Shown: positions 14,301 through 51,129, numbered from the whole stretch's first letter. The stretch is DNA of 63,972 nucleotides, filler included, from Reclinomonas americana ATCC 50394 (GCA_048213135.1; 22 parts of 22 records of this genome joined end to end with filler, not necessarily neighbours in it), one strand, 5' to 3'. Translations and numbers: made by a program. Notes: generated from the letters alone by a model not told the origin.

Positions 14301-17300
14301 CCAGCGACGCGGACGATGTAAACAAACTGCATGTGGACCGCGAGCTGGCCGGCGTACCGAACAAGGAGTGGAACAAGCGCGAGCGTCTACCGGCCAACCT
14401 GTCGATGAAGGATTGGGATGTGGAGTCGGTGCCGAGTTCGTTGGCGCCAACCGTCACCATTGCTGGCGGCGATCGGCTGACGGCCATGAGCTACGGCGAT
14501 CACGTACTCACCATCAGCACCAAGATCGAGGTCAAGTTTGCACGCATCTTCATTCCCCTGGAGCACGACCCGATGCGCATTCGCGTGGCGTGGGCGCGCT
14601 ATCTCAACCTGATCTTCAACGACTTTTTCAAGCGCTCGTTGCTGCTGGAGCAAGAGTACAACATGTACAAGCGTGCTCTCGCCATCCGACACACCTCGCG
14701 CACCGACTTTTTGGCCGGCACCTGCAACCTGCGACATTTCGTGTCGCTGCTTCGCCGGCGTCCGCCAAAGAACCAGGAGGCACGACGTCGCTTGTCGACC
14801 AATTTTGACGGCCTCCTCAGCAACAGCATCCCCACTGTCGATCCGGTCACCTGCATGCCGTCGTTCTGCATCATGATTCCGAGTGGTGCGTGGGTTGTGC
14901 ACTCAAATCTTCTGTATTGATTGACTGACTCACTTTTGTGCAAGTGCAGGTGACGAGCCGTTCTTGTACACCATGGATCAACTGCTGGAGGTCACCACGA
15001 ATCGCGCACCGATTTTGCTTCACATGATAGAGCGGTACCCGAATGACTGGAAGAACTTTGCCGATCGAGTGCTGTCGGACCCCACCTTTGCCGACGAGGA
15101 TGGCGACGCCATTGACATTATTTTTACGCGCGGCGCACAACGGTCCAACGTGCTCGAGCTGATGGAGCAAGGCGACTATCCACTTGTGTACCACTCGTTC
15201 CGCAGCTTCAGCGTGCCTCTTCAGCGCAAGATTCGCGAGTGGGCCTGCGGACGGTGCGTGTGTAGATGGGGATGATGATGATGCTCGTCTGCGGTACTTT
15301 AAATGACTCCGTTTTCACCACAGCTTCCAACCACTGTTTCGGTGTCTGGAGGGCGTGGCCGGCCAGCGCGATGCCCTTATCTTCCTGCACCGGCTGCAGA
15401 ACCCGCGAGACCCCATGAGCCGAGCCATCGAGGTCGTCGACCAGAAGCTGCAAGTGGTGTTTGGCTACCAGTCGTACGGCAAGGTACCTGGAGCCTCGCT
15501 GAGAATCGCCTTCTTCTCTCACTTGCTCACTCGTTGCCGATTACAGCTCAAGCAAGCTGCTGACGGCGATGCATCTGAACGCGGAGGCCTCCTGAGCGAC
15601 ATTAACACGACGCTGGCCAAACTACCGTTCATCGATCTGGTGACCGTGGAGGCCACCACGTTTGAGGGCCAGACCGTGTACGATTCGGTGTGTTACAAGT
15701 TCGATCAGCGACCCGACGGTACCGTGTTGCGTGTCGAAAAGGCTCGCGTGCGAGTTGCGTGCCATGAGAAGTGCAGTCTCGTCGAACACCAGGCTCCACA
15801 CACGCTCACTTTCCCCACATTTTGCAGTTGCCCGGCAATCCGTTCTTGTGTAGCGGCAAGGCAGAGAATCAGCATCAGATGTTTGTGCACGTCCGCACTG
15901 AAATCGTACAGGCTGTGGACTGCAACCAGGACTCGTACTTTGAAGAAATGCTCAAGGTGATTGATCTCCGTACATGTCGCCAGTTCTTTTGATGCGCTGA
16001 CGCGGCTGATTTTGTGGCAGGCCCCCTGCGCGTTGCGTGAGTTTGCTTTGAATCCGGAGGTGCGAGTCGTCGGATTCTCGGAGACCGTAATCACCGAGAG
16101 ATGGAACTTTGTCGGTCGGCTGGCGGCCTTGGCCGAGCGAGCGTTCAACACCACCGTGCAACGCGGTCTCGGTATCATTGGTCTTCGCGCCCACTACGGC
16201 CACCCCGACTTCATCGATGCACGATTCGCTCGCTCCTGTGGTGGTCTCTCGAACAACGCCTATGTCAGTGAGGACATTTTCCTCGGTCTCAACTTGTGGA
16301 TTCACGGCTACGAGTCGACGCATGTCGACTACCTGCAGTACGGCAAGGCTCGTGACACAAGCATGCTCACCACGGCCAAATTCGAGTCGAAAGTGGCTGG
16401 TGGCTCTGCGCAGGCTGTTGCGTTGAGATTTTTTGATTTTGAGCACACAAGCGCATCCTCACGTGCTGTGCCATCACGCAGTGCATGTCGCGTGAGGTGC
16501 ATCGCTTGTACCGATCGCGTCTGTTTGGTCCGCTGCAGCGGTACTGCTTGTATCACTCCAACATGGGCTTCTACTTGAACCACTACATTGTGCGCAACGT
16601 TGTCATTTTCTGGGTCCTCACCCACATTTGCATCAACATGGCCAATCACGTTGCGTCTCGAGCGTACCGTACTCTTCCTCTCTTCACTGCACTCGCATCT
16701 CACCAATAACCTCCCCGCGTCGCAGTGGATCGAATCCAAGTTCTTTGTGGCCACCAGCAACGATCCCTGGTTCCTGGCTGTTGGCATGTTCCTCTCCCTG
16801 CCCGCCATTTTCACCATGTGGATTGATCGCGGTTTACTGGGCGGCACTTGGTACTTTATCAAATACGTCGTGCCCATGGCTGGCTATCAATTATTCCACG
16901 TCAGTACCAAGGCCTACGGGTGGGGCATCGGCATCTCCTCGGACGCCAAGTTGCGCCTTCAGAGGGGGGATGCACACGTTTTTTTATGTGGCGGGTGACG
17001 GCACGGTAGTAGATGTTTGCAATCTCTCTCCCGCACGCATGCACATACAGAGCACTTTGTCTGTGTCTGTCACTCTCTTCTCTGTCCCCACCGGTGACGT
17101 GCTTCCAATCACACACGCTCCCTGTCCAGCTCTTTGTATCCGCCTAACTGGACCGGCATCACTGACGAACCTGCGTCTCCTGACACGGTGCGTCTGCTGG
17201 ATCACGACAGATACATTCAGACGGGGCGTACGTTTGGTCTCGAGCACACGCGGTTCCGCGACATTTTGCTGCAATTCAACGACTCGCACTTCAAGTACTG

Positions 17301-17713: not shown

Positions 17714-20617
17714 GTGAGCAGAATCACATTGAGAAGGCGGTGACGGAGAACGAGGGACTGGTGATGGAGTTGGTGAAGGACATTAATGATGCTTTCAACG
17801 GCTTCTGGTTCTTCAATCCAGAGGAGCGACCAGAGGCCACCTCGGCGGTGGTGCGTTGTGGCGCGATCTTACATTCTCTGCTTGAGTGAGTTTTGGAGGA
17901 CTTATCTTTGTGATTGTTGTTGGCTGCAGACGGCGCGCATCTGGGACATTGAGGACGACGAGGCCGACGATGATGAGGTGATGGCATACGACGATTACGT
18001 GCAGCTGGCGGTGAATGTCACCAAGAAAATCAAGGTGTGCGGTGGTCGCAGTTTTTGTGGAGTTGATTATTCTTCTGAATACGCTGACACATACACGCAG
18101 AAATACCAATACCGCTTGCGCTCGTCGCACGTGTCGTTCCCGGCACTCGTGCGCCGCATCCTCAACATCGAGTGGCCACAAGAACGACTCGACTTTTTGC
18201 TCATGTTTGGCAGCTTTGGTGGTGCCGTCAGCAAGGCCATTGACCAGTGCAACGACGACACTCTGTCTGGCCAGGAGCGTCGCCATCGTGCTGTCTTGCG
18301 CGTGGTCTGGGCCCTCAACACGTACGTCGAAAACACGTACGACCTCATGCGACGGACTGTACTGTCGCTGCACATGCGCGAGTTCCGCGCGAATCCGCTG
18401 TGCGTTGACCTGGTACAGGCGGCGTTCTTGAGCATTCAAGAAGGTCTCTTTGGTTTCCATTGCCATGACTGTTGATAGGCAGACTACTCACTGGCTGTGA
18501 TATCTCGCTTGCGCAGGCTACCAAATTTTGCTCGGCGAAGGCGTGCGACAATTTGCGGAAGAGGTGGCGCCGCAGTTCGCAGCTGCGGCCGTACTCGCCA
18601 ACGACATGGCGTCGATGGATCCAGACACGATGCTGGCGCGCGCACAGGAGATCAAGTCGTTGTGGAAGACGGTGCAGAAACTGTCGGCTCACCTCGCCGT
18701 CACCTCGCAAGAAGTACTGCAGCTGTCGCGAGCGTTCGAGGTATCCATTGCACCGTTATTTATTTTGTTGCCTGCACCCACCGACTCACTTGTTTATCGA
18801 CGCTCGCAGGAGGGTGAGGCGCCGCACTACTTTTTCGATTCGCGCATGTTGCAGATGAACGGTGTACTGGACGACAGCCCAGCCATTCAAAGCAAGTTGG
18901 AGCTGGTGACGAGCACACTCATGCAACTGCAGCAGATGGAAGCGCGACTGGAGAAGGATTGCATTCGATTGGTGCGCATGAAGCAAGGTCTCGACCCCGA
19001 CGACGACAGTACGATCATGCCTCTCGATCTGCCGACCATGGCCGAGAGCGTGCACTCAGTGTCCAGCTATCGCGGCGGTCTCGGCAGCTCAATTGCTGGC
19101 ACCCCACACGCTGCCCTGGAGATGGTCGCCACTCCGCGCACCGTGATTGAGGAGGCCGGCAAGCAGATGAAGATCACTGTCGTTGGTGCGTACCCGCGTC
19201 ACTCCTTGTTAGTGCCCATGTCCATGACTCACTCTCTTCTTTTGTGAATGTGTGCGTGTGCAGCACCACCACCACTGGCTCCATCGAGCGCCGCCGGATC
19301 GTCGACGTACAACGAGGACGAGATGCGCAAGGCTTCGAATCGCCGTCAGAGTCAGGACCTCGGCTCCGACATTATGACGGTGGACTCGGAGATTGTCGAG
19401 TACGGCGACCTGGAGAAGTCGTCGTCGCAGAGCTCCATCACCCACACACATCGAGTGGTCACGAAACGCATCACGCGCTCCGTGTCGCCCACTGGCAAGC
19501 CCGTGCGACGAAGTGCAAGTGGCAAGGCAGCGGACAAGACCAAGTCTGCCAATACCGCCGCCACTGCCGCAGCCGACGGCGCGCCAGCAGCGGCCTCGTT
19601 TGACCTCGGCGGCTCCACACCACTGCCACCGCCAATCCTCACGCCGGTCACGGCGCGGGCGATCTCGCGACGTGGTGGCGGTGGTGGTGGTTCCATGCTG
19701 ACCACTGTGTCGATGCCTCCGGACGATGCCGACAACACTCCGCGCGACTCGTTGGTGTATCTGCAGGCCGGCGTGGTGAACTCGTACCCGTCGTCGCCGT
19801 CGTCGCAGGCGTCGGAGCTTGCCGTCGAACTGGCCACCGATCAGAGTGTTACACCGAACCGCTCGCCCAACACCACACCGATCCGCATGGACGACGGTAC
19901 AGCTGTTGACGACAGCGAGCAGTCGATTGATGTGCTCGACGTGGACGAGATTCGCCGCGACTCGCGACTTGTGCGTGAGGTGTCGGCGCGCATCGAGATC
20001 CCGTTCATCATGCGCCATCCAACCTATCGCTTCTCGGTGGACGAGCACGTGGCGTTGGCGTACAAGCGGCAGGAGGGCGTCATTCGGTACATTGGACCCA
20101 CGGATCTCGGTCCCGGCACGTGGCTCGGCGTCGAGCTCAAGCTGCCAGAGGGCAACAGCGACGGCATGCTCAACGGTACTCGCTACTTCCGATGCCGGCA
20201 CAACTACGGCGTGTTTGTCAGGCCGGAGAATGTGCTGCGTTGCAAGGTACTGTGGGCAATGATGTCCTTTTTGTGTTTTCTTCTTTCCTCCACTGAATTC
20301 TTGTGACACAGATCTACACCGTGGAGGCACAAATGGGTGGCGATCAGATGCAAGAAACAGTGGACATGCGTCGCCGTGCATTGTCGCCGAGTGCGCGGAC
20401 GGAGGAGTTGACGGCGCGCGAGAAAGTTGCACTTGCGCAGCACGAGTCGCGCACGCGAGGAATGGCTGCCTCGCCAACAGACATGGTGATGAATGCGGCG
20501 TCGCCGGATGTGGCTCCACGCCTGCAACGTCGACAGTCGCTCCTCGGCAACGACAGCGAGTCCAGCAGCAACAGCAGCGGGCGAGGGCGTCCGGTGTGTG
20601 TTGACAAATTCATTCAC
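17714..20617 (+). CDS. Multi-exon helical/coiled-coil and low-complexity segment with a CAP-Gly domain; probable continuation of the glucan synthase gene
   Basis: CAP-Gly at about 20031-20235: GVIRYIGPTDLGPGTWLGVELKLPEGNSDGMLNGTRYFRCRHNYGVFVRPENV. The reading frame is open at the contig start and enters an intron at the contig end. Confidence 0.85.
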
Positions 20618-27293: not shown

Positions 27294-28990
27294 GCTCCGG
27301 CGCCTGTGTGTTGACGAGCACACCCTTGGCCAACTGAAGCACATCGAGACAGCGTCAGTGACCGCCAACACGAGACAGACACATTTCTGTCGTAACCTCT
27401 GCTCGGATGCTCTTGGCCTGCACGTACAGCCGGACAGCCGCCGAGTACTTGCGTTGCGCAAGAAGAATGTGCGCCATGTTAGCCAGTGCCGTGGCAGTCC
27501 TACAGGCGAAGCATTCGTTAGAGAGGGAGAGAGAGGGAGCGACAAGGACGGCAAGGCACTCACGTGGCATGGTTCAGGCCGTAGGCGTGCTCAAAGATGG
27601 AGCGCGCTTTTTCGTACATTTCCAGTGCCTCTCCGAGGCGTCCCTGCTGCCGTAGCACGTTGCCGATGTTGTTGTAAATCGTGCCGAGAGAGGGATGATG
27701 CTGTGCGCACGCGTCAGCATGGAAGAGATGCAATGGGCACGGCAATCTCAACCAAACGCACCTGTCCAAGTGTGTCTAGTCTCAGTCGCGCAAGGCGAAG
27801 GAAAATGGCCAGCGCCTCGTGGGTGGCGCCACTGAGCAAGTACACATTGGCAATGTCACACTCGCGCTGTTGTGCTTCGGGGTGGTCGTCGCCAAAAATC
27901 TATACAGCAGGATAGGTAAGGACGTGGACGCACAACAACACAGAATACAGGCACGATACAGAACGCCTGTCACCTCTCGACAAATGCGATGAGCCGTCTC
28001 AAACACGGCCAACGCCGGCTCCCACAACTCGCCATGAATAAACACCTCTCCAATCGCCTGCGAGGAAGTCAACGAGAATTAGAACCACAAGTTGTCGGCT
28101 GGCTGACTGACTGGTGCGTACACACCGTGTAGCACGCGGCCGTCTCCACGTGGTACGGGCCGTGAACTTTTAGCCGAATGTCCAGCGCCTTTTCGAAATT
28201 CAGCGTCGCCTCCTCCGGCTGGTTCGCGGCCAAGTACGTGTTGCCGAGAAGAATGTAGCACGCCGCCACCGCCGTGTCGTTGTGTCCATGCAGCCGAATG
28301 CGCAAATCGAGTGCCTTGCGCTGCATCTCCAGCGCCTCGTCGTACATGCGCATGTGCTTGTACACAGTTCCCATGTTGTTGTAGCAGGTGGCCAGATCGG
28401 GGTGCTCCGTGTAGCCAGCGCACTCCAACAAACTGGCGCCGTGCTGGTAATGCTGCAGCGCCTTCTCCAACTCGCCCTGTTGCAGCAGACTGCCGGCGCG
28501 AGTGCACGATCAGCACGCGGAGGGGGGTGAAATGAGGGAGGCGAGGGGGGGAGGCGACGCAACATATTGCCGACATTGTTGTACAGAGTGGCCTGATCGA
28601 GATCGTTCAGCTCGTTTGTGGCCTGACTGGCCTCCAGGGAGCGCTCAAAAGAGCGCAATGATCGCTGGTATAGACCCAAGCTACCGCACACCATGCCTGC
28701 CGAAATAGGAAATGGTGAATCACCCAATTTTTATGGCGTGTGACTGGGAGCACGCACCTAGATTGTTGAGGGCAGCAGCCGACTGCACGGAATCTTCACC
28801 AAATGCCCGCGTGCTGACCTCCACCAGTTTCTCGTACTCGGTGCGCGCTTGGTCGAGATTGCCGAGCAGTCGATGCAGGTACCCCGAATCGTTGTAGTAC
28901 ACCGACCACAGTGTCTCCCGCTCCGTGCACTGCGGACTGCGCTCGAGAATCACCTTGGCAGCGGCCAGCTGCGACTCTCTATTGACCAGG
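27294..28990 (-). CDS. TPR-repeat protein (kinesin light chain/NPHP3-type repeats), partial
   Basis: Repeated motifs HPDLATCYNNMGTVY..YDEALEM, HPSLGTIYNNIGNVLRQQGRLGEALEMYEKA and SAAALNNLG over several exons. Confidence 0.9.
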
Positions 28991-31884: not shown

Positions 31885-32370
31885 GACTGTGTGTGGTAAA
31901 TGAGAAGTGATCGAAATGGCGGGAATCGAGGGGGGGACATGCAATATGCGTTATCGAAGTGCCCGGCAGCACATCGTTCAGCGAAGAGCGCCTACGTCGT
32001 CTGCTAATCATGAGGAGATACTGTGAAACGAGACATTTTGGCTTCGCAGCGACTCGAGAGCGATAACAATTGCAAACTTCAGAAACCCCGATCGACGCTG
32101 CACTCAAGTGGTTTCTCTGTCGGTGCTCTGGATATGGTTGAACTTGGCCGTCAAGGCAGCTGTTGCAACTCGACGTGCTCCCTTGCACTGAGTACGGCCA
32201 CGTGCTTCTCTGTTTTTTATTCAATTGCAATACCGGGAGGGGGCACAGTGGGATATACCACGCAGCGACANNNNNNNNNNNNNNNNNNNNNNNNNNNNNN
32301 NNNNNNNNNNNNNNTTAATTAATTAANNNNNNNNNNNNNNNNNNNNNNNNNNNNNNNNNNNNNNNNNNNN

Positions 32371-32544
32371 TCTCACAAATCATGAATCACACAAACACAC
32401 ACACAGTCAACTCACACTTGGAGCTGGCAAAGAGCGCGAGGAAGAGCAGTGTGTTAAGAATGACCAGCATCACCACACACGTGATCAGCAAGCCCACTGC
32501 ACGCAATGAGAGACACACACACACGGAATCAGCGCACATTCGCA

Positions 32545-32575
<31 letters not shown>

Positions 32576-32795
32576 CCAAGCAGCCGAGTCTCCTCTTGAC
32601 TGGATCCTTTGGTCGCTTGCCCAACAACACGTCGGTCTCATAGTAGGAGGAGGGTGAGTGTGAGATGCGCGGAGGTGCGCCTCCTCCGTTGACAGAGGTG
32701 GCGGCGACAGGTGGAGGCACGCCACTGCCGCCGTTGAGCGCGCCACTGCTCGCGTTGCGAATGTGGAAGCGCGTCACTGGCGCGTCGTCGCTCAT
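32371..32795 (-). CDS. 5' part of a type II membrane protein of unknown function
   Basis: ATG 32795 MSDDAPVTRF...KRPKDPVKRRLGCL, an intron, then hydrophobic VGLLITCVVMLVILNTLLFLALF. Truncated by the gap. Confidence 0.5.
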
Positions 32796-33694
32796 GGTGG
32801 GAGTGAATGATGGGACGCACGCAATGGAGCGACGGATTTGGATTGATGAGTGTTTCATGCAATGGGGCAGCATGGAATTCCCATGTGGAACAATTACCAT
32901 CAAGGCATGTACACGGGGGATCAGAGGGCTGAAGGCTTTTTCATTTGCCTCTGACCTGTATCTCACGAAACTGCGCGCGATATCAATCGATATCGAATTA
33001 TATCGGGCAAAAGCCAGCAACAACGACAATCAAAACACAACCCTGTCAATCCACACATCGATGCAGGTGCACGATGATCTCCATCCTGAGCGAGCGCCAG
33101 GAACGGAAATATCTGTGGAAAACTGAATTCGAAATTCGCAACGTCGCGATCGGCAACTGGCGTTCTTGAGGGAGAAAGTACGGCTGCAGATTGGTGCGAT
33201 AGCACGTCGGCTGCTGCATGGGAAGAGAAAGACAGAGTTTGCTTCCCTGCAGGTCTCGGTGATATCCGCCTCGGTTGAAGGCAGCAAAGAATACAACAGA
33301 CAGCTGCAGGGTCAAAATGCACAGTGCCCGGCCTCTGCAGCCGTTCTCGGCAGTGCTCAACACAAGCAGAATGCGGTAACGGACGAAGCGGAAACTTGAA
33401 TAAGCTCGTCGGATCCGGACCCGCTTTCCTGACATGTCCCATGCATGGCCAATCTGGATTTGCGGAACTTGGAAGGTGGCATGATAGTCACGACATCTGA
33501 CATATTGTCTGTCTTGTCTGCGTTGTCGGTCGCAGATGCCTGCCTTTTGACGACTTGCGCTGGCGTCCGGCGTGAATTAATTCGAACACACTGGCGATCA
33601 ATTTTATTTTTTCCGATTTCGTGGCGAGAGAAGGCAAGGTGAATGGCTACAGCCCTAGGCCTGATCATCTTGACACATCATCTCTCCCTCCCTT

Positions 33695-33731
<37 letters not shown>

Positions 33732-34041
33732 TCTGCGTGTCTGCCTCTCTCCGTCGCATCTTTGCATCGCATCCAGACAATGCATGTGTGCATTCACTCC
33801 CTCTCTTCTCGCTCTCGCTCTCATCGCTCTCATCGCATATTCTCACTGCATTACCCATCCGCGACGAGCATACTCCTCTGACACGATCCTGCAGTGGGTC
33901 GCATTTCTGTCATCTGCCTCTCCCCATCTCTCTCCCTCCNNNNNNNNNNNNNNNNNNNNNNNNNNNNNNNNNNNNNNNNNNNNTTAATTAATTAANNNNN
34001 NNNNNNNNNNNNNNNNNNNNNNNNNNNNNNNNNNNNNNNCG

Positions 34042-39132: not shown

Positions 39133-42100
39133 GGCGACAGATGGGTTGCCTTGAGCCATCGCCCTCGTCTTGGCAGCCTGCGGTGCGGCGAGAGTGTGTG
39201 TGTGAGAGAGAGAGAGAGAGAAAGAGATAACCACTCACTCCGCACGCTGTCAACAACTATAATACGAACCACCGAGTTGGCAGTCTTGTTGAGTTGCGCG
39301 AAACCTGATCTTAGCATACGCACGACCGTCTTCGCCCGAATTACCCTGTTCTGCAATTGCCACTCTCCAGTCTTCTTGTTTTGCACCCAGCGGCGCAGTT
39401 TCACCATCCCAGCCATCGCAGCGGCGAAGTGGGGCAGGCAAAGCGCCGAGTTGAGCACAATCACCCTGCGCGAGTGCAGGAACGATATGACTGCGCTGTG
39501 AGCACGGGCAAAGAGGACTCTCGCGCTTGCACGAGTACGCAGCTTGCGAATGAACTCGGTGGCCATCTTGTACGAGCAGGCGCGTATCTGCCGAGTGATT
39601 TTCGACATCTTGCGCTTGATACGCTCTCGCTCCCGATTATCCACGATGCGTCCGAGCGAGGCCAGAGTGGAACGCAGTCTGTCCTGCTTCTCCAGCAGGG
39701 GGGCGATTTCACGCTCCGCCCACTGCGGACCGTAATTCACCACTGGCGTCGGCACGCCCCCTCCTGCACAAAATGAAGACGGAATATTGTGAGAAAGTCG
39801 GTCGTGGCATGGGAGAGAAGAGAAGAGGAGAGAAGAGGGAAATTAAAGGTGACAGACAGACAGCCGCGAAGGGAAAAAAAGAGGAAAGAGAGAGAGGGAG
39901 GAAAATGCGACAGACACGAAGAGAAGAAACATGTGCACGAAGTGCATGGTGAGGACAAGAGAGAAAAGGGGGAGAGAGAAATGCGGGAAGAGCGCGAAGG
40001 GAGTGAGGGAAATTTCACAGAGGAATGGGATTTCTCTTGTGCGCCCCTCCCACGCAATGCAATCGTGCGTTCGTACCAATCTCGGCGGCCACCGCCGCAG
40101 TGCGGACTCCCTGATCAATGCCAGAAAATTTTCGAGTATACGGCGTGTTCTTGAATACGGCGCCTGCTTCCTCGGCTCTGTAGTGGCGATGATGGCACAC
40201 AGATTTCGGAGAGCCGCACACCAGACACTCGCCATTCTTGAATAATTCGTGCCAATCCGCTCCGTTTCCGTGGCCGCCACCACTGCCACCGGGAGGGCCA
40301 CTGGCACTGCCACTGCCACTGGCACTGCCACTGCCACTGGCACTGCCACTGCCACTGGCACTGGCACAGTCCCGCCAGTCTCGGCCAAGATGGCGGCGGC
40401 GTGCGTTACCTTGACCACCAGCACTGTCGTGCACTTCCAATGTCGCATGCGCAGACAATTTCTCCAGTGCACGACGGAGTACGACGCATGCAGTGGAGAA
40501 ATCTTCATGCACGCGCCACGCAGAGTGAGAGAGAGCAAGACTTGGACGGTGGTCTCTCATCACCAACTCACTTCGCATCCGCATTTGTCGCCGGTCAGCG
40601 AAATACTCCTGTTTCGCAGTGCGTGCCAGCCGCGCTTCTACCGCCGCATCACCGACGCCAGCTTGTTGGTGCTGGCGTGAACGGGCTCGATTCTTCTTGC
40701 GACACTCGCCACGGGGGCGATCGACAAAGCGCATCGCGGTCCTCGCGCCGCCACCTGCGAGTGCCTTCATCGCACCCTCACCACCGTCACCAGTCACTGA
40801 TTTCGAAATGCGTTGTAAGAACGCAATGACAAAGAGGCCAGGGGGACGAGAGATTAATCAGGTGGGCGCACCAGCGGAGAAGGCTTTCCACGTCTGATCG
40901 GCAAGGCAAGATACGCGGTCCGAACGACCACATAGCAGGAATGTCGATCGCATGGTCGTCAGTGAGGCTGTCATTCGTGACGAGTCAATAATTTGTACGA
41001 ACAGATCAACGAGAGAACTTCTCCAACTCTCTCTCTCTCTCTCTCCAACCATTCTCAATCTGCAGACGCGAATAACAGGAAATAGTGCAATGAGAGAACA
41101 CAAAAAGAGTCAACCATCCCTCTCTCTCTCATTCCCACTCCCTCACCCTCCCCATCACTCCTCAACCCATCTTTACGCACGCACCGTTTAGCTCGCGCTG
41201 CAACGCCTGCCAGTGACCGAATTTGACAAGTGCGGTCATAGCCCGACTGAATGAATCGACGTGCGGATCGGACAGCTGGCCGCCAAGTGCAAGCGCTGAA
41301 TGCCGCCGAGCCATTTCGAGCAGTCCACGTGGCACGGCAAGCTGGCCATCGCACAAATCCAGTCTAGATTCAAGCACGGCAGTTGACGCCTCCACAAGCG
41401 CCGCGAGTCGCCGACAAGCCACCAACACTCCGCTGGAGCCGGTGAGTGGGGCGAGGAAGCAATCGGGGAGGAGATGCTGCACGATGAAACGCAGCGACAC
41501 GGCCGGCTGCTGTCCGTCAGATGGCAGCTCGAGCTCTGGATCGGGATCTGAACTGGCAGGAGCGGAACCCATGAGGGCGTCGCATTCGCCGATTGCAAAC
41601 ACCAGTGCCTGTTGAATAATCTCCGCGGCCGCCGACCGAGGGTCTGCGTGTCGCTCAACGTTCCCCGAACTGTCTCGGTCGGCCTGGAATTGCGGATGTG
41701 CGGTCGGGTTGCGCGCTCGTGTTTCTGTCGCACGGTGAGTGTTTTCTTTTGTGTGCAAGCAACACACAAGCAATCAGCTCACCAAATTCCCACTGGAAAT
41801 AGACTTGTCTCAACTGGGTGCGCAGCGCACGGGCCAGCGCATTAACCACTCGTTTTGCACAATCGCTCACAGTGGCCTCGTCTGCCATTTCGCCAGCACC
41901 AACGACGCCTACTTCCACGCGAGTGCACAGAGAATCGATCAACTGTATGAACGGAGACACAGAGTGCACACACTCTGCCAACTCCACCAATCAGTGAACA
42001 GCAATACGGCCACAGGAAGAGAAAGAAACACAAACCATTCCCGTCAAAGAGAGTACCACAAGCTGCTACGTGTGACACAACGACGGCATGTTGTACTTGG

Positions 42101-43410
42101 CGCAGGGCTTGCAACAGGTCGGCGTTGAAAGTAGCTGACCACGGCGATTGGACAACTTCGCGCCAGACACGCGTGAACTGTCCATCCCGCAGAAACCTGA
42201 GAAGATCCATAATCGAGGATGCGTGTGGCTGATCAATCGCATGTACTCCACCTGCACGGAGGTACCAATTGGAAGGAGGGTGAGATGACACAAAAGGTCA
42301 GAGAGAGAAAAGGAGAGGAAGAGAGAAGTAGAGTCGCTCACTCGCCCGATTTCCTCCCTCATTCACTCACCAATGCGCCGTAGCACAGCAATGGCATCCT
42401 CCGACGGCGAAGCCCTGGCCAGCTTGTGGCGTATTCCACGAATATGGGATATCTCCTCCAGGAGAACTGCAATCGTGTTTGCAACAACCGCCAAGCACGA
42501 CTCCTCGCCCTCGACGCCCAGTGAGATGGGGATGATGGGAGCCAGCGCAGCGATGTCGTCATCATGTAGAGTGTGTGCGACGGCCACAGATCTATCCCAC
42601 AGCGCCAGCAGAAGCCTTCGAGCCGAGTGTCCGCAGCAGACCTCATACTGGACAACGGCACGCATCGCAGCACACTCGCATGCACCAGCGCCATGCAGAG
42701 CGGTCTCCGACTGATGATGAAAATCCGCACTAACCAGCTCCTTGATGAGCTCAACATCTGCATGCACATTCATCCGTGCAACAGTAACAGTCAGTTCCTC
42801 TTGATCTTACACGTACTCGTTCTCTCTCTCACTCGCTCCTTCTCTCCTTCTCATACACCTATAGCTACACACACAAAGCTCATGCTCTGTTTCAGTAACA
42901 CACCCACATGCGCACACCCGCACTCATGATCACACGCAAAGATCACCAAAGATCACATCTCACTCCATCCTCCTTCTCTCGCTCCCCCCACCTTCTCTCT
43001 CTCTTCACGCACCTTTAAAGTGCAGTGCTCGCGTTCTGTAAGTTGAGAACAAAACTCGTCTCACTCGCTCCACCGGCGCCTCGCCACCACGTCGGCCAAT
43101 TGGGCACAAGTGAGCCACCAGCGCATCGACTGAAGCATCGGTCGTCAGCCGCGCATAGTCCTTCCTCAGTCGACCCAGCGGCAAAACGGCCAAACAGCCA
43201 CGTGTGTCCAGCTGACGCGCCAGTGCAGTGTGTCGCATCACCGACGCGACCTCGGCGACGGCAACACGGATGAGGTCGTCGCGCTGACGAATCAGGTCGC
43301 TGATGGACTCCATGTCGCAAGCAGCCGAACAAGAGAGGTCGCACTGAATCTTGTAGGCGGCACGCTCTGTTTCGCCGCCAGGGAACTCGTGGCTGACGGG
43401 GAGAGGGAGG

Positions 43411-46700: not shown

Positions 46701-46976
46701 TGAGCACACCCGCCACACAACGAAGAGCACGTAGGAATCACACACCAGCGACAGCGTAAGCCGTGCAAATTGGTCCTCGTAGAACACCAGCGTGATATGC
46801 GGTGCATGCAGTTGAGCGGGGTCGAAGTCGCTCTCCGCCTCGATGAACCCGGCGGGTTCACCGCGCGCCTGCGAGCGGCGCAACTGGCGATCGTACTCAT
46901 GTCGTACGGCAGTCGACACTCGAGACAATGCGTAACCGCTGAGCTCGTCTCCCCCATGCAGCGTAATGCTCGGCAT
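39133..46976 (-). CDS. Very large multi-exon protein ending in a Fanzor/TnpB-type RuvC domain (3' end lost in gap; 5' limit uncertain)
   Basis: RuvC-I FSGIDQGVRT (Asp codon 40114-40116), basic helix RERIKRKMSKITRQIR, then ALCLPHF..MAGMV..RVIRAKTVVRML. Upstream exons splice in phase through 40797, 41190 and across the 43584-43683 gap. Confidence 0.75.
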
Positions 46977-47439
46977 ACTGCAATGACCATGGAGGATTAG
47001 TGAGAGGGAGACAAAGTTGTGAAGTCAGTGTCCCATACGCACACTCGCTTTCCGTCTTTGCCTTCCACCACATCGGGCGAGATGAGGAGGAACCTCCCCA
47101 TAGTCGCCTGCGCGGCGAGTACGGCTGCCTTCTCATCGCCACGCAGAATCACAGACGAAGATGCTTCGCGGCCAAACTTGATGCTGCACGACCACGCAGA
47201 TATATATATAGCAGTTGAGCACANNNNNNNNNNNNNNNNNNNNNNNNNNNNNNNNNNNNNNNNNNNNTTAATTAATTAANNNNNNNNNNNNNNNNNNNNN
47301 NNNNNNNNNNNNNNNNNNNNNNNTGACGGACAGAGTACTGAGTGACCATATGCATGGTGGCCAGTGTGGCAGGCGCCACGCTGTCGTCCATGGATTTAGC
47401 GTATTACATCCATGGCGTTAACGGCGTGGCCGCTGCCAC

Positions 47440-48525
47440 CTGATCAAGGTGAACGAGCAGATGGCCACAGACTGCACGCCACCAATTGCAACCATCGTCA
47501 CACTGCCGCCGCCAGGTGAACGAGCACACGGTCACAGTCTGCATGCCACCAACCATCGTCACACTGCCGCCGCCAGGTAAACGAGCACCCGGTCACAGAC
47601 TCCATGCCACCAACCATCGTCACACTGCCGCCGCCAGGTGAACGAACAGACGGTGCCAGACTGCATACCACTAACCATCGTCACACTGCCGCCGCCAGCT
47701 GATCAAGGTGAACGAGCAGACGGTCACAGACTGCACGCCACCAACTATCGTCATACTGCCGCCGCCAGGTGAACGAGCACACGGTCACAGACTACATGCA
47801 TATGCCACCAACCGTCGTTACACTGCCGCCGCAAGCTGATCAAGGTGAACGAGCAGATGGTCACATACTGCACGCCACCAACCATCGTCACACTGCCGGT
47901 ACCAGCTGACCACGGTGCCAGACTGCATGCCGCCAACCGTCGTCACACTGCCGCCGCCAGGTGAACGTTAACGAGCACACGGTCACATGTACAGACTGCA
48001 CGCCACCAACAATCGTCACACTGCCGCCGCCAGGTACCGGTGAACGAGCACACGGTCACAGACTGCACGCCACCAACCATCGTCACACAGCCGCCGACAG
48101 GTGAACGAGCAGACGCTCACAGACTGCATGCCACCAACCATCGTCATACTGCCGCCGCCAGGTGAACGAGCAGACGGTCACAGACTGCACGCCACCAACC
48201 ATCGTCACACAGCCGCCGCCAGCTGATCAAGGTGAACGAGCAGACGGTCACAGACTGCACGCCACTAACCGTCGTCACACTGCCGCCGCCAGCTGATCAA
48301 GGTGAACGAGCAGATGGTCAAAGACTGCACGCCACCAACCATCGTCACACTAGTACTGCCGCCGCCGGGTGAACGAGCACACGGTCACAGACTGCATGCC
48401 ACCAACCATTGTCACACTGCCACCGCCAGGTGAACGAGCACACGGTCACAGACTGCATGCCACCAACCATCGTCACACTGCCGCCGCCAGGTGAACGAGC
48501 AGACGGTCACAGACTGCATGCCACC
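47440..48525. repeat. 61-bp minisatellite array (roughly 16-17 degenerate copies)
   Basis: Unit GTGAACGAGCA(C/G)ACGGTCACAGACTGCA(T/C)GCCACCAACCATCGTCACACTGCCGCCGCCAG, for example starting at 48430 and 48491. Confidence 0.92.
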
Positions 48526-51129
48526 CTTCCGCATGCGCACGAGTTGAGTCTCGCACACTGCGCGGAGACGGCGGCGTGAGGATGTCCTCAATTGTGCGCG
48601 CGTTGGCATATGCATTGGTGCAATCCATCGAACCTGATCATGACTTCTCCATGGTGTCGAGGCTGACTGGCGCACCAAGTATTATCACCTGGCCCTCGGC
48701 CAGCATTGTTTCGCAAAGCGCGCGGATCACAGAGCAACAGCAAACTCTGCGAGAAGGGCGATCAATGTGAGTGGTTGATGAACGCGTACGCGTGAGTACC
48801 TTGGCGCTTGCGCTTGCTTGCGTGTGCGAGTGCAAGAAACGCAGGGAAGAGAGAGAGAGGGAGGGAGACGGGAGAGAGAGAGCGAGTGGGAATGTGCACT
48901 CGAGACAGTGAGAATGTGTGTGTGTGTGCATCACGTGTGTGCTGCACGTGCACGTGCTGTGCACGTGTCTTGGGAACACGCGAGCTTCCACTCTCGTGTT
49001 CCTCTTGTGCACGCGCACCTGAGCTCGAGACGGCAATGGTGTCACTTACATGCGGAGTCACTCCCGCGAGAAACCATGGCCAGGCCACGCACAACGAAAC
49101 AAAGTTACCCGCGCCGTGGGGGTGGAAGGAGAAGCAACGAATGCGCGCAGCAACACAAAGACCGCGGTACCGGGGTATACAGTGAATGCAGTGTCGGAAA
49201 CGGTCTTCTTTCCGTGACAGGATGACCTTCCAAACAATAGATCTAGAAGTTCACTGGTCCATACACAACCATGAGCATCTACCAATGATCGCCAACAAGT
49301 CTCGTGCGCTTTCCTTCGACAACTAAAACTGTCCAAAACGAGAGGCGACAGGAGAAAAGGGACAAGAAAAACATCGACAATATTAGCACAGCGATAAGAG
49401 AGAGAGAGAGAGAGTGTGTGTGTGTGTGTGTGTGTGTTATCAATGTCACACAGCCTCCAGGCCAGGAAGAAGACTTCGTCAGCAGTGACCACCAGAAGAC
49501 GTCCATCGCAGCAACTACGAAGAAGACAAAAAGAAATTGATCATATCAAGAAGAACAGTGGGGCAAGCATTGGGAAACTGTTACTTCTCTCACACCACNN
49601 NNNNNNNNNNNNNNNNNNNNNNNNNNNNNNNNNNNNNNNNNNTTAATTAATTAANNNNNNNNNNNNNNNNNNNNNNNNNNNNNNNNNNNNNNNNNNNNGC
49701 AGTATCAGGACCAGATCGTCCTTTCACTGAGTGGAAATGTGACCATAGGTACATCACTAGTTGAAGTCATGTGGTCATCAAGGCAGGCATCTGAGTGCAT
49801 GGCTGTGTAGGGGACACTCACAGCACCTGCCACGTGTGCTCAGAGCAGCAAACACACACTCCAGTGTGGAGAAAAACGCGTTTGATCGCGCGTGCGACGC
49901 CAACGGCCATTGGCGGCGAGGGTCATATCAGGGTGAGCGCGCGGCACATCTGGCCACCGGGCCACGGAGGAGGACCATAATGGATAGGGGAGACACACAG
50001 AGAGGGCTCTGCGACGGTGTCTGTGTGTCTGATTGGCTCAACGTCGAGCTGTCAGTCCCAATCAGTCGGCGTGGTGCCGGTGCCGGCTGCCTTCATGCTA
50101 AAGCGCCGGACTGCGGGGCGCATCGAAGGAGAGCCATCGTACGTCAGAGATCCACGAAGAGAGCGCTGCCAGCGTGGACAGAGGCAGAGTTGGAGGGTCA
50201 CTCACTGAAATGTGGCCATAGGTACATGGGTTTGAACAGATCCGCGGCAAGAGGCGACATAGCTGCGGGAGGCGTCCTCCGCCACTCTGCGTGTAGGCCA
50301 AGACGTGAGGAACAATATGGGCCTTCAGCTGCGGCTACCGCCATCGTGGTTATCACGTTTCGCGTGTCGGAAGCGAGGTGGGGAAATGTGGCTATGGGTA
50401 CATGATCAGGCACGTGATGGTGCTGCATGCCGTCGGGCATCCAACGGTGCGCGACCCATGCTCCTATGATATCATGCACGTATCCACTCGCATGGGGGCA
50501 ACGGACGAACGGTTGTCTGTGCAGGCGCCTTGGATGGCCTGCATTTCACACATCCAGCAGTGGCTCATAGTGACATGGTGCGAGGCAGCAACATTGACAT
50601 GAACGAGCGGCTAGATTGACTTGATGACACCACGCTTGTCGGAGAGAGGCGCCCGAGGCTCAAACACAATAAACAGCCCTTCCTTTATTATTGACACCCC
50701 ACTCTGCCGAGGCTTCATCGTCATCATTACGCAGAGGTTGGCGTCTGACCGGCGTGTCTGCGCACGTGACACTATGCAAGTGCACTTCGCCTTGATGTGC
50801 ACGCGTACGCACGACGATAGTGACAGCAGCTGCTGCATGGCCGAGCTGGTTGACGATGACATGGCGAGCCAGTGATCTGGCACCCCATCGACGGGCCAGC
50901 GAAGCCAGCATGCGCAGACACTGTACACCTGGCGGCCGGCATCGAGCAAGTGCATATACCAGGCGGGTGAGCGTCTCTCACCGCGATCAGAAGAAGCGAG
51001 ACAAGGAGTGTGCACATGGAGACAGCGACCGGCTGGGCAAGAGAGCGCAGCAGAAATTAGCGGGCGAGATGGAATGCAATGGAGAGAGCGGGTGGGAAGA
51101 AGGGCTAAAGAGGAAGAGAGAGGGAGGAG

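Follow-up and report, generated by a model that had tools for sequence, protein, structure and literature searches.

A diverged TnpB/Fanzor-like RuvC segment in intron-bearing exons: a candidate host-maintained remnant of a transposon nuclease

Among the TnpB/Cas12 RNA-guided nucleases, Fanzors form the eukaryotic branch and, to our knowledge, have so far been found as transposon passengers. Whether a eukaryotic host may keep such a gene for itself is the question raised by a locus on the minus strand (39133-46976) of the 63,972-nucleotide stretch presented above, hereafter the window, which is intron-rich eukaryotic DNA with a G+C content of ~55%. The original prediction for this locus, made from the sequence alone, was a single giant protein whose Fanzor/TnpB-like C terminus would act as an RNA-guided DNA-binding module for a large effector. 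We find that two spliced exons of the locus match the RuvC-I to RuvC-II part of TnpB and Fanzor proteins, while a giant RNA-guided effector is unproven. The explanation that we favour, with a probability of roughly 0.55, is that the segment is a real but degenerate and heavily diverged Fanzor2/IS607-TnpB-like remnant, maintained by the host as an exapted gene or part of a gene, and not an active transposon nuclease.

Relationship of the spliced exons to TnpB and Fanzor

The motifs and splice sites named in the original prediction are all present on the minus strand, where it had placed them (Table 1). The TnpB-like part lies in two frames, open over 280 and 253 codons, on either side of intron 1. 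This intron is obligatory because the read-through frame stops 20 codons past 40077; in sliding windows it has no preferred codon-usage frame and a non-coding appearance, and the family alignment passes across its junction unbroken. A codon-usage score trained on five Pfam-supported open reading frames (ORFs) of the window (1,067 codons) ranks the ORF frame best in all three TnpB-like exon segments. That frame wins 14 of 16 sliding windows in exon A and 9 of 10 in exon B, with scores of 0.20 in exon B1 (vs -0.40 and -0.34 in the other frames), the strongest coding-like score, and 0.007 in exon B2 (vs -0.51 and -0.20).

For comparison, relatives were collected from viruses and prokaryotes. Viral contigs scanned with a back-translated family motif gave 15 loci, seven of them with Fanzor-like ORFs of ~630 residues, and homology searches from the viral loci gave 56 proteins and then 346 (120 of the 346 among the matches listed). 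A scan of prokaryotic genomes gave 70 loci (L016-L085), mostly in filamentous cyanobacteria (Microcoleus, Oscillatoriales, Calothrix, Nostoc) and in a minority of cases in Desulfobacterales, Thiomargarita/Beggiatoa-like bacteria and one Parachlamydia metagenome-assembled genome; this spread agrees with the distribution of 'pro-Fanzor' IS607 TnpBs given in the accessible text of PMC10711439. The prokaryote-only profile holds 35 sequences, and the joint profile holds 202 relatives, comprising 35 IS607 TnpBs of cyanobacterial type and 167 Fanzor-like proteins from giant viruses or metagenomes. Among solved structures, the best relative of the reference alignment is the mimivirus 'TnpB-like protein L79' (PDB 9b0l, E 5.6e-55), followed by ISDra2 TnpB.

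The exons, spliced by coordinates before scoring, matched the joint profile at 16.3 bits (E 3e-7 alone, 1.7e-4 among 674 window sequences). The best unrelated window ORF reached 6.1 bits, and none of 10,000 shuffles reached 16.3 bits (maximum 14.2, next 7.7). The alignment is one stretch that runs from just before the RuvC-I strand to past LPHF, across the exon junction. With the prokaryote-only profile in HMMER, the spliced exons scored 9.8 bits (E 1.8e-5), a value attained by none of 5,000 shuffles, and ranked first among 670 window sequences (E 0.012). In hhalign with the prokaryotic profile, 170 collinear columns aligned with a score of 35.5 (P 1.3e-4, probability 53.5%), against a background in which the best of 216 window ORFs reached 21.8 and the best of 150 shuffles 23.5. 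By itself, exon B, whose 151 residues do not include the RuvC-I motif, scored 10.3-10.5 bits (E 1.2e-5 to 1.5e-5). Because the joint-profile match crosses the exon junction and exon B matches without the RuvC-I motif, it is very probable on sequence grounds that the spliced exons are homologous to the TnpB/Fanzor region from RuvC-I to RuvC-II. The relationship of the C-terminal exons to Fanzor/IS607-type TnpB, as originally proposed, is thus borne out by the window-wide E-value of the custom profile and by the hhalign P-value.

The motif itself is rare. The strict form [GAS][IVLC]D.GVR[TK] occurs once in the six frames of the window, where 0.007 occurrences are expected from residue frequencies and 0.015 from 200 shuffles, and the probability that it falls in the 100 codons preceding a given point is ~1.6e-5. 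In a phmmer decoy test, 202 true C-terminal regions competed with the same 202 sequences reversed and with 666 ORFs of the window; the 40 best matches comprised 26 true, 1 reversed and 13 window sequences for the spliced exons, and 19, 2 and 19, respectively, for exon B alone, in trials that are not independent, the true sequences being interrelated. A protein-language-model atlas provides a lead only. The named clusters nearest to the second ORF are PF01385 (OrfB_IS605) fragments (0.86), and those nearest to exon A are giant-virus/green-algal PF07282 clusters and a TnpB cluster (0.78-0.80), the latter result not being independent of the RuvC-I motif because the query contains it. For both exons, the ten best named matches all fall in one clan, with scores under the 0.9 evidence level.

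Conserved and altered residues of the RuvC segment

The Asp at the RuvC-I catalytic position, which had been called intact, is indeed present, in a GIDQGVRT context that aligns to the DPGVR block of the family. The residues around it are altered. Where Fanzors have DPG, the segment has DQG (40116-40108), with Gln in a column occupied by Pro in 93-100% of each of the three reference sets. Ala replaces the Phe that follows GVR(T/K), and the aligned KMATEF stretch, which ends the second helix of exon B1, lacks the His of the ELH(W/K)K helix. Further pairs in the HH alignment are K-T, R, M-L, F and L in the helix that follows, and the V-V-D strand just ahead of the alternative Glu of Fanzors. This strand, RIIVVDS in exon B2, aligns through I-I-V-V-D and then reads Asp-Ser, with no Glu in register with either donor, although the zinc finger needed to fix the register would lie in the gap. 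According to the accessible text of PMC10711439, the Fanzor fingerprint is 'near exclusively DPG' together with an alternative catalytic Glu placed six residues ahead of the zinc finger's first CxxC. Because neither is visible in the segment, its readable part does not qualify as a bona fide Fanzor. It also departs from the canonical IS200/IS605 TnpB signature (D-hydrophobic-G and a canonical Glu located ~50 residues ahead of the zinc finger), since Gln is not hydrophobic and the strand before LPHF has no Glu. The original prediction had further assigned these motifs the same spacing as in the known proteins; relative to the IS607-type profile we find insertions of ~12 and ~14 residues, plus the optional 26.

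The 3' end of the readable segment bears on how much of the protein can be judged. Putative intron 3 has a CT/CA repeat as its interior and a predicted boundary, and three splice variants score alike against the profile. With the GTGAGT donor, the fragment at 39133-39177 encodes a peptide of 15 residues in which two Cys are spaced 12 apart and Glu-x6-Cys is absent. The zinc finger, RuvC-III and a 3' guide-RNA region, if they exist, would fall in the assembly gap that follows. Further N-run gaps around the same linker occur at 43584-43683 and 47224-47323. A single-sequence AlphaFold2 (AF2) model of the 177-residue ORF had a mean predicted local distance difference test (pLDDT) score of 50.4, and only a helical hairpin was moderately confident (helices at residues 13-35 and 42-73, block pLDDT 61-86).

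Exon A has two local features of its own. An 18-nt tandem repeat at 40297-40367 (3.9 copies, 98% matches) encodes a Gly/Ser/Ala run, and it caused the matches of exon A in the PDB, which were only Gly/Ser linkers of engineered chimeras and were rejected. A Cys/His-rich stretch at 40170-40235 (minus strand), C-x2-C-x6-C-H-H-x-H, lies ~25 residues ahead of the RuvC-I strand, where TnpB has WED strands, and pairs weakly with the family zinc finger in hhalign (P 0.12); the stretch could be an insert that binds metal in this lineage, or it could have arisen by chance. Very short predicted GT-AG introns of 61-62 nt, which keep the reading frame, occur at 46684-46745 and 39178-39238 (minus strand). 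If both are real, the genome combines unusually short introns with others of 300-400 nt.

Table 1. Positions of the locus features and of the Pfam-supported neighbouring genes in the window
Feature	Position	Strand	Details
Upstream coding-like exons	41185..46976	-	~1,340 codons in total; possible ATG 46976; approximate bounds 41186-41650, 41783-41990, 42062-42250, 42366-42806, 43011-43400, 43979-45120, 45368-45960, 46315-46683, 46744-46976
Linking intron or intergenic spacer	40797..41184	-	Donor G/GTGCGT 41185/41184; pyrimidine tract and AG 40798-40797
Exon A of TnpB-like part	40077..40796	-	ORF 40015-40857, 280 codons; 5' boundary either acceptor AG 40798-40797 or, as a first exon, own ATG 40770-40768; donor G/GT (40077/40076)
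RuvC-I motif FSGIDQGVRT	40099..40128	-	Catalytic-position Asp codon 40116-40114
Intron 1	39764..40076	-	GT-AG (GT 40076-40075, AG 39765-39764); 313 nt; CT-rich; phase 1
Exon B1	39544..39763	-	Remainder of RuvC-I hairpin and two long helices
Optional 78-nt segment	39466..39543	-	GC-AG intron, or in-frame 26-residue insertion
Exon B2	39239..39465	-	LPHF strand (39437-39426), ~14-residue insertion, RVIRAKTVVRML helix (39347-39312), RIIVVDS strand (39266-39246)
Putative intron 3	39178..39238	-	Donor GTGAGT 39238 (alternative GTGCGG 39245); acceptor AG 39179-39178
Final readable exon fragment	39133..39177	-	45 nt; abuts gap; too short to assign
Assembly gap	39033..39132	.	N run with TTAATTAATTAA linker
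1,3-beta-glucan synthase	15961..16575	+
CAP-Gly protein	19248..20303	+
TPR protein	28072..28509	-
Papain-family, cathepsin-B-like peptidase	36827..37345	-
Pyridine-nucleotide disulphide oxidoreductase	38152..38724	-

Upstream exons and rival explanations

Nine segments further upstream on the same strand also appear coding. By codon usage the ORF frame is best in eight of them, the exception being 42062-42250, and the coding-like length summed over the locus is ~1,750 codons. The original prediction spoke of continuous exons and of roughly 2,000 residues; the frame preference, common to the upstream and the TnpB-like segments, agrees with such exons, but the gap at 43584-43683 interrupts their continuity, and the length is arithmetically fair only if all of them belong to one gene. 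Pfam placed none of 13 locus ORFs above its cut-off and detected no known domain in the upstream exons, and a search of PDB sequences with two of these exons gave nothing. In hhalign with full-length profiles, none of ten segments (the nine upstream and the first 160 residues of the TnpB-like exon) was TnpB/Fanzor-like (all P >= 0.077). The proposed RNA-guided DNA-binding module is an assumption, because the upstream exons bear no likeness to TnpB/Fanzor and the WED, REC and helix-turn-helix (HTH) regions were undetected.

Joining the upstream exons to the TnpB-like part depends on the GT-AG pair 41184/40797, which is in phase (phase 1). If it is left unspliced, the upstream frame hits a TGA at 41164-41162, seven codons past the donor at 41185, and 41240-40790 has negative codon scores, no steady frame and a non-coding appearance. 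The donor resembles others of the locus, such as AAAG/GTGCGT near 43010; the end of the upstream frame is only ~390 nt from ATG 40770; and codon usage is coding-like on one strand over ~7.8 kb. These points favour a giant gene of ~1,800-2,000 residues, in which helical and acidic upstream exons would be fused to a functional Fanzor-derived RNA-guided module that aims the effector. However, the phase agreement is a 1-in-3 chance, an alternative acceptor near 41061 leads to an immediate stop, and the in-frame ATG 40770 leaves ~216 residues ahead of the RuvC-I Asp. A separate gene starting there, the outcome that the original prediction had itself named as a refutation, fits the data equally well. 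Of the claim of one giant fused protein, what stands is a single in-phase GT-AG pair, and we regard the fusion itself as tentative and somewhat doubtful. A fusion with a working guided module must in addition accommodate upstream segments that are unlike TnpB, the missing WED, REC and HTH similarity, DQG in place of DPG, no Glu at the aligned alternative position, no Rfam match over 38000-48000, and a 3' end that lies in the gap; we consider it improbable. A related proposal, that a nuclease-altered RuvC module derived from Fanzor2/IS607-TnpB was exapted to form the C-terminal domain of a ~1,800-residue protein specific to its lineage in an intron-rich protist, is in our judgement rather improbable.

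The same exons could instead be a dead relic, that is, a decaying Fanzor/IS607-TnpB copy between host genes or in a 3' untranslated region, with simple-repeat insertions mistaken for introns. This would suit the degenerate hallmark residues (DQG, no alternative Glu), a recognisable part limited to the middle third of the protein, interruptions rich in CT/GA microsatellites, and the failure to find an orthologue in the searches made. Long neutral decay should nevertheless have brought stops and frameshifts, whereas the 280- and 253-codon frames are open with host-like bias, and the interruption at 40076-39764 is bounded by canonical GT-AG sites, the family alignment being exactly restored across it. 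Because such extreme divergence is found together with two long host-biased open frames and a clean GT-AG intron, we prefer host maintenance to neutral decay and hold the relic to be unlikely. Chance resemblance, in which the exons would encode part of a basic, helical protein confined to this lineage and unrelated to TnpB, would explain why Pfam, NCBIfam, phmmer against 1.84 billion proteins and the PDB all lack a match and why the language-model scores stay below their evidence level. It could also draw on a Cys-rich ORF at 48796-49182 (plus strand) that scored 29.7 in hhalign with the first profile, but this junk frame, which we rejected, matches only at the zinc-finger cysteines, and these are not used in the candidate alignment. 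The window-wide significance with the joint profile and its shuffles, the independent contributions of two exons in the correct order, and the ratios of true relatives to reversed decoys (26:1 and 19:2) leave chance very unlikely. An ordinary active RNA-guided nuclease is likewise disfavoured, because the DPG is altered, no Glu is in register and the RNA-binding half is unrecognisable.

Several results weigh against a host-maintained descendant of TnpB. Only nine of 20 assessable strongly conserved columns match in the profile alignment: four in RuvC-I (G, D, G and R), one L, one I, and three in the LP.F...M strand (P, F and M). The unspliced ORFs are not significant singly across the window. 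Excision of the optional 78-nt segment, in which codon usage favours no frame (25 codons), raises the joint-profile score from 12.3 to 16.3 bits and the prokaryotic one from 6.0 to 9.8 bits; with only the obligatory intron removed the window-wide E is 0.0029, and the choice of splice sites gave some freedom. Single-clade viral profiles give 4.6 bits (clade 1) and 3.4 bits (clade 2). In the N-terminal WED/REC half and HTH region, there is no PF12323 match and the full-length profiles add nothing upstream of RuvC-I; the missing PF12323 is only moderately informative because this family was found in 5 of 9 true relatives. Among curated resources, Pfam returned no TnpB family for the 13 locus ORFs at E <= 1, NCBIfam nothing relevant at E <= 10, and PDB sequences no match to the second exon at E <= 10. 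A match to a TnpB/Fanzor profile, on which the original prediction had staked its case, was therefore obtained with a custom-built profile only. Control searches with nine true relatives put this in proportion: PF07282, which covers the zinc-finger/RuvC-III part, matched all nine, and PF01385, which covers the part readable here, reached E <= 0.01 in six and its curated cut-off in none. The curated-model miss is weak evidence against homology, because the PF07282 part is hidden in the gap and PF01385 misses true relatives too. With the 209-residue second ORF, phmmer found no match at E <= 0.001 in 1.84 billion representative proteins. A word-index search of longer proteins for homologues gave no match and a scan of metagenome contigs gave 286 pattern matches, none of them a relative, so that no orthologue emerged from the protein, word-index and metagenome searches. 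The open frames may also be those of a young pseudogene from a divergent element.

On balance, we propose that the nuclease gene of an IS607-like transposon settled in the host chromosome and has long been resident there. The exons at 40796/40770-40077 and 39763-~39239 (minus strand) would carry ~165 residues inherited from the RuvC-I to RuvC-II region of a TnpB of the Fanzor2/IS607 type. This copy would have acquired spliceosomal introns, one of them obligatory and one or two more probable, and host-like codons while its frames stayed open, and would now stand without an adjacent transposase and without a second copy in the window. Loss of its nuclease activity, its maintenance by selection and a link to the upstream exons are what the altered residues, the open frames and the in-phase splice pair, respectively, may indicate.

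The surroundings of the locus were surveyed as well. Beyond the 39033-39132 gap, the next gene encodes a glutathione-reductase-like oxidoreductase, with its ATG (38865-38863) 168 nt past the gap. Pfam found no transposase or other mobile-element gene among the 13 locus ORFs and 131 other window ORFs, and no paralogue of the TnpB-like exons was found within the window. An apparent paralogue at 32496-32726 (tblastn E 0.008) was rejected as a Gly/Ala/Pro-rich alignment running through a stop codon, and HMMER matches near 56.1-56.7 kb were attributed to chance. The interval 32001-34000 has a G+C content of 0.488, compared with 0.54-0.63 in adjacent 2-kb windows, with two assembly gaps within or beside it; its ORFs belong to no Pfam family. 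Just upstream of the 47224-47323 gap is a tandem array of 61-nt units at 47447-48525 (~16.6 copies, 78% matches, higher-order period ~329 nt), throughout which long plus-strand frames are open.

Comparison with known systems

A copy that the host keeps, with introns and an altered catalytic centre, would be a domestication candidate, as with TnpB in bacteria, and an exapted C-terminal RuvC module, if true, would make this locus the first case of a domesticated Fanzor among eukaryotes. The locus also illustrates that curated TnpB models overlook the RuvC-I to RuvC-II part, even in true relatives. In its accessible text, a survey of 64 apicomplexan genomes reports no traces of DNA transposons (PMC9141347). 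This would count against our reading only if the host were an apicomplexan; features of the genome recall coccidian Apicomplexa, but the affiliation is not established. In that case the locus would qualify the statement, and, if the exaptation is true, it would be the first gene derived from a DNA transposon in that phylum. Our literature search found no report of a Fanzor in Apicomplexa, although supplementary tables of Fanzor surveys, which lay outside its scope, may list alveolate matches.

Among known systems, Fanzor1 proteins such as SpuFz1 (PMC10432273, accessible text) share with the candidate that they are eukaryotic nuclear descendants of TnpB. Fanzor1 proteins keep DPG, the alternative Glu and the zinc finger and sit in recognisable transposons with a 3' guide RNA, whereas the candidate reads DQG. 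The closest reference is the set of IS607-type 'pro-Fanzor' TnpBs, mostly cyanobacterial according to the accessible text of PMC10711439. As the original prediction had it, IS607-type proteins are the best match, at 9.8-11.4 bits and the hhalign score given above, compared with 3.4-4.6 bits for the viral clades. The candidate and the pro-Fanzors have in common, in the same order, the D.GVRT strand, an EIG hairpin, two long helices, the LP.F strand, a Met, the KT..R.ML helix and the V-V-D strand before the alternative Glu. The candidate differs in having DQG instead of DPG, insertions of ~12 and ~14 residues, no ELHKK His and no in-register Glu; it has no recognisable N-terminal half, contains spliceosomal introns, lacks an adjacent IS607 TnpA, and would have any zinc finger/RuvC-III region in the gap. 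Giant-virus Fanzor2 proteins, represented by mimivirus L79, resemble the candidate in the RuvC-I to RuvC-II layout, in the vacated canonical Glu position and in their association with eukaryotes. Unlike the candidate, they are intact proteins of 400-650 residues, are multi-copy on mobile elements and match PF07282 in all nine cases tested; their clade profiles are the ones that score low against it.

A precedent for the loss of the nuclease centre comes from bacteria. TldRs are bacterial nuclease-dead TnpB derivatives used as RNA-guided repressors, and they illustrate that a host may keep a TnpB descendant whose nuclease centre is lost. Besides being prokaryotic, these proteins still possess the lobes that bind the guide RNA, together with a gene for that RNA; at the present locus, the readable sequence showed neither.

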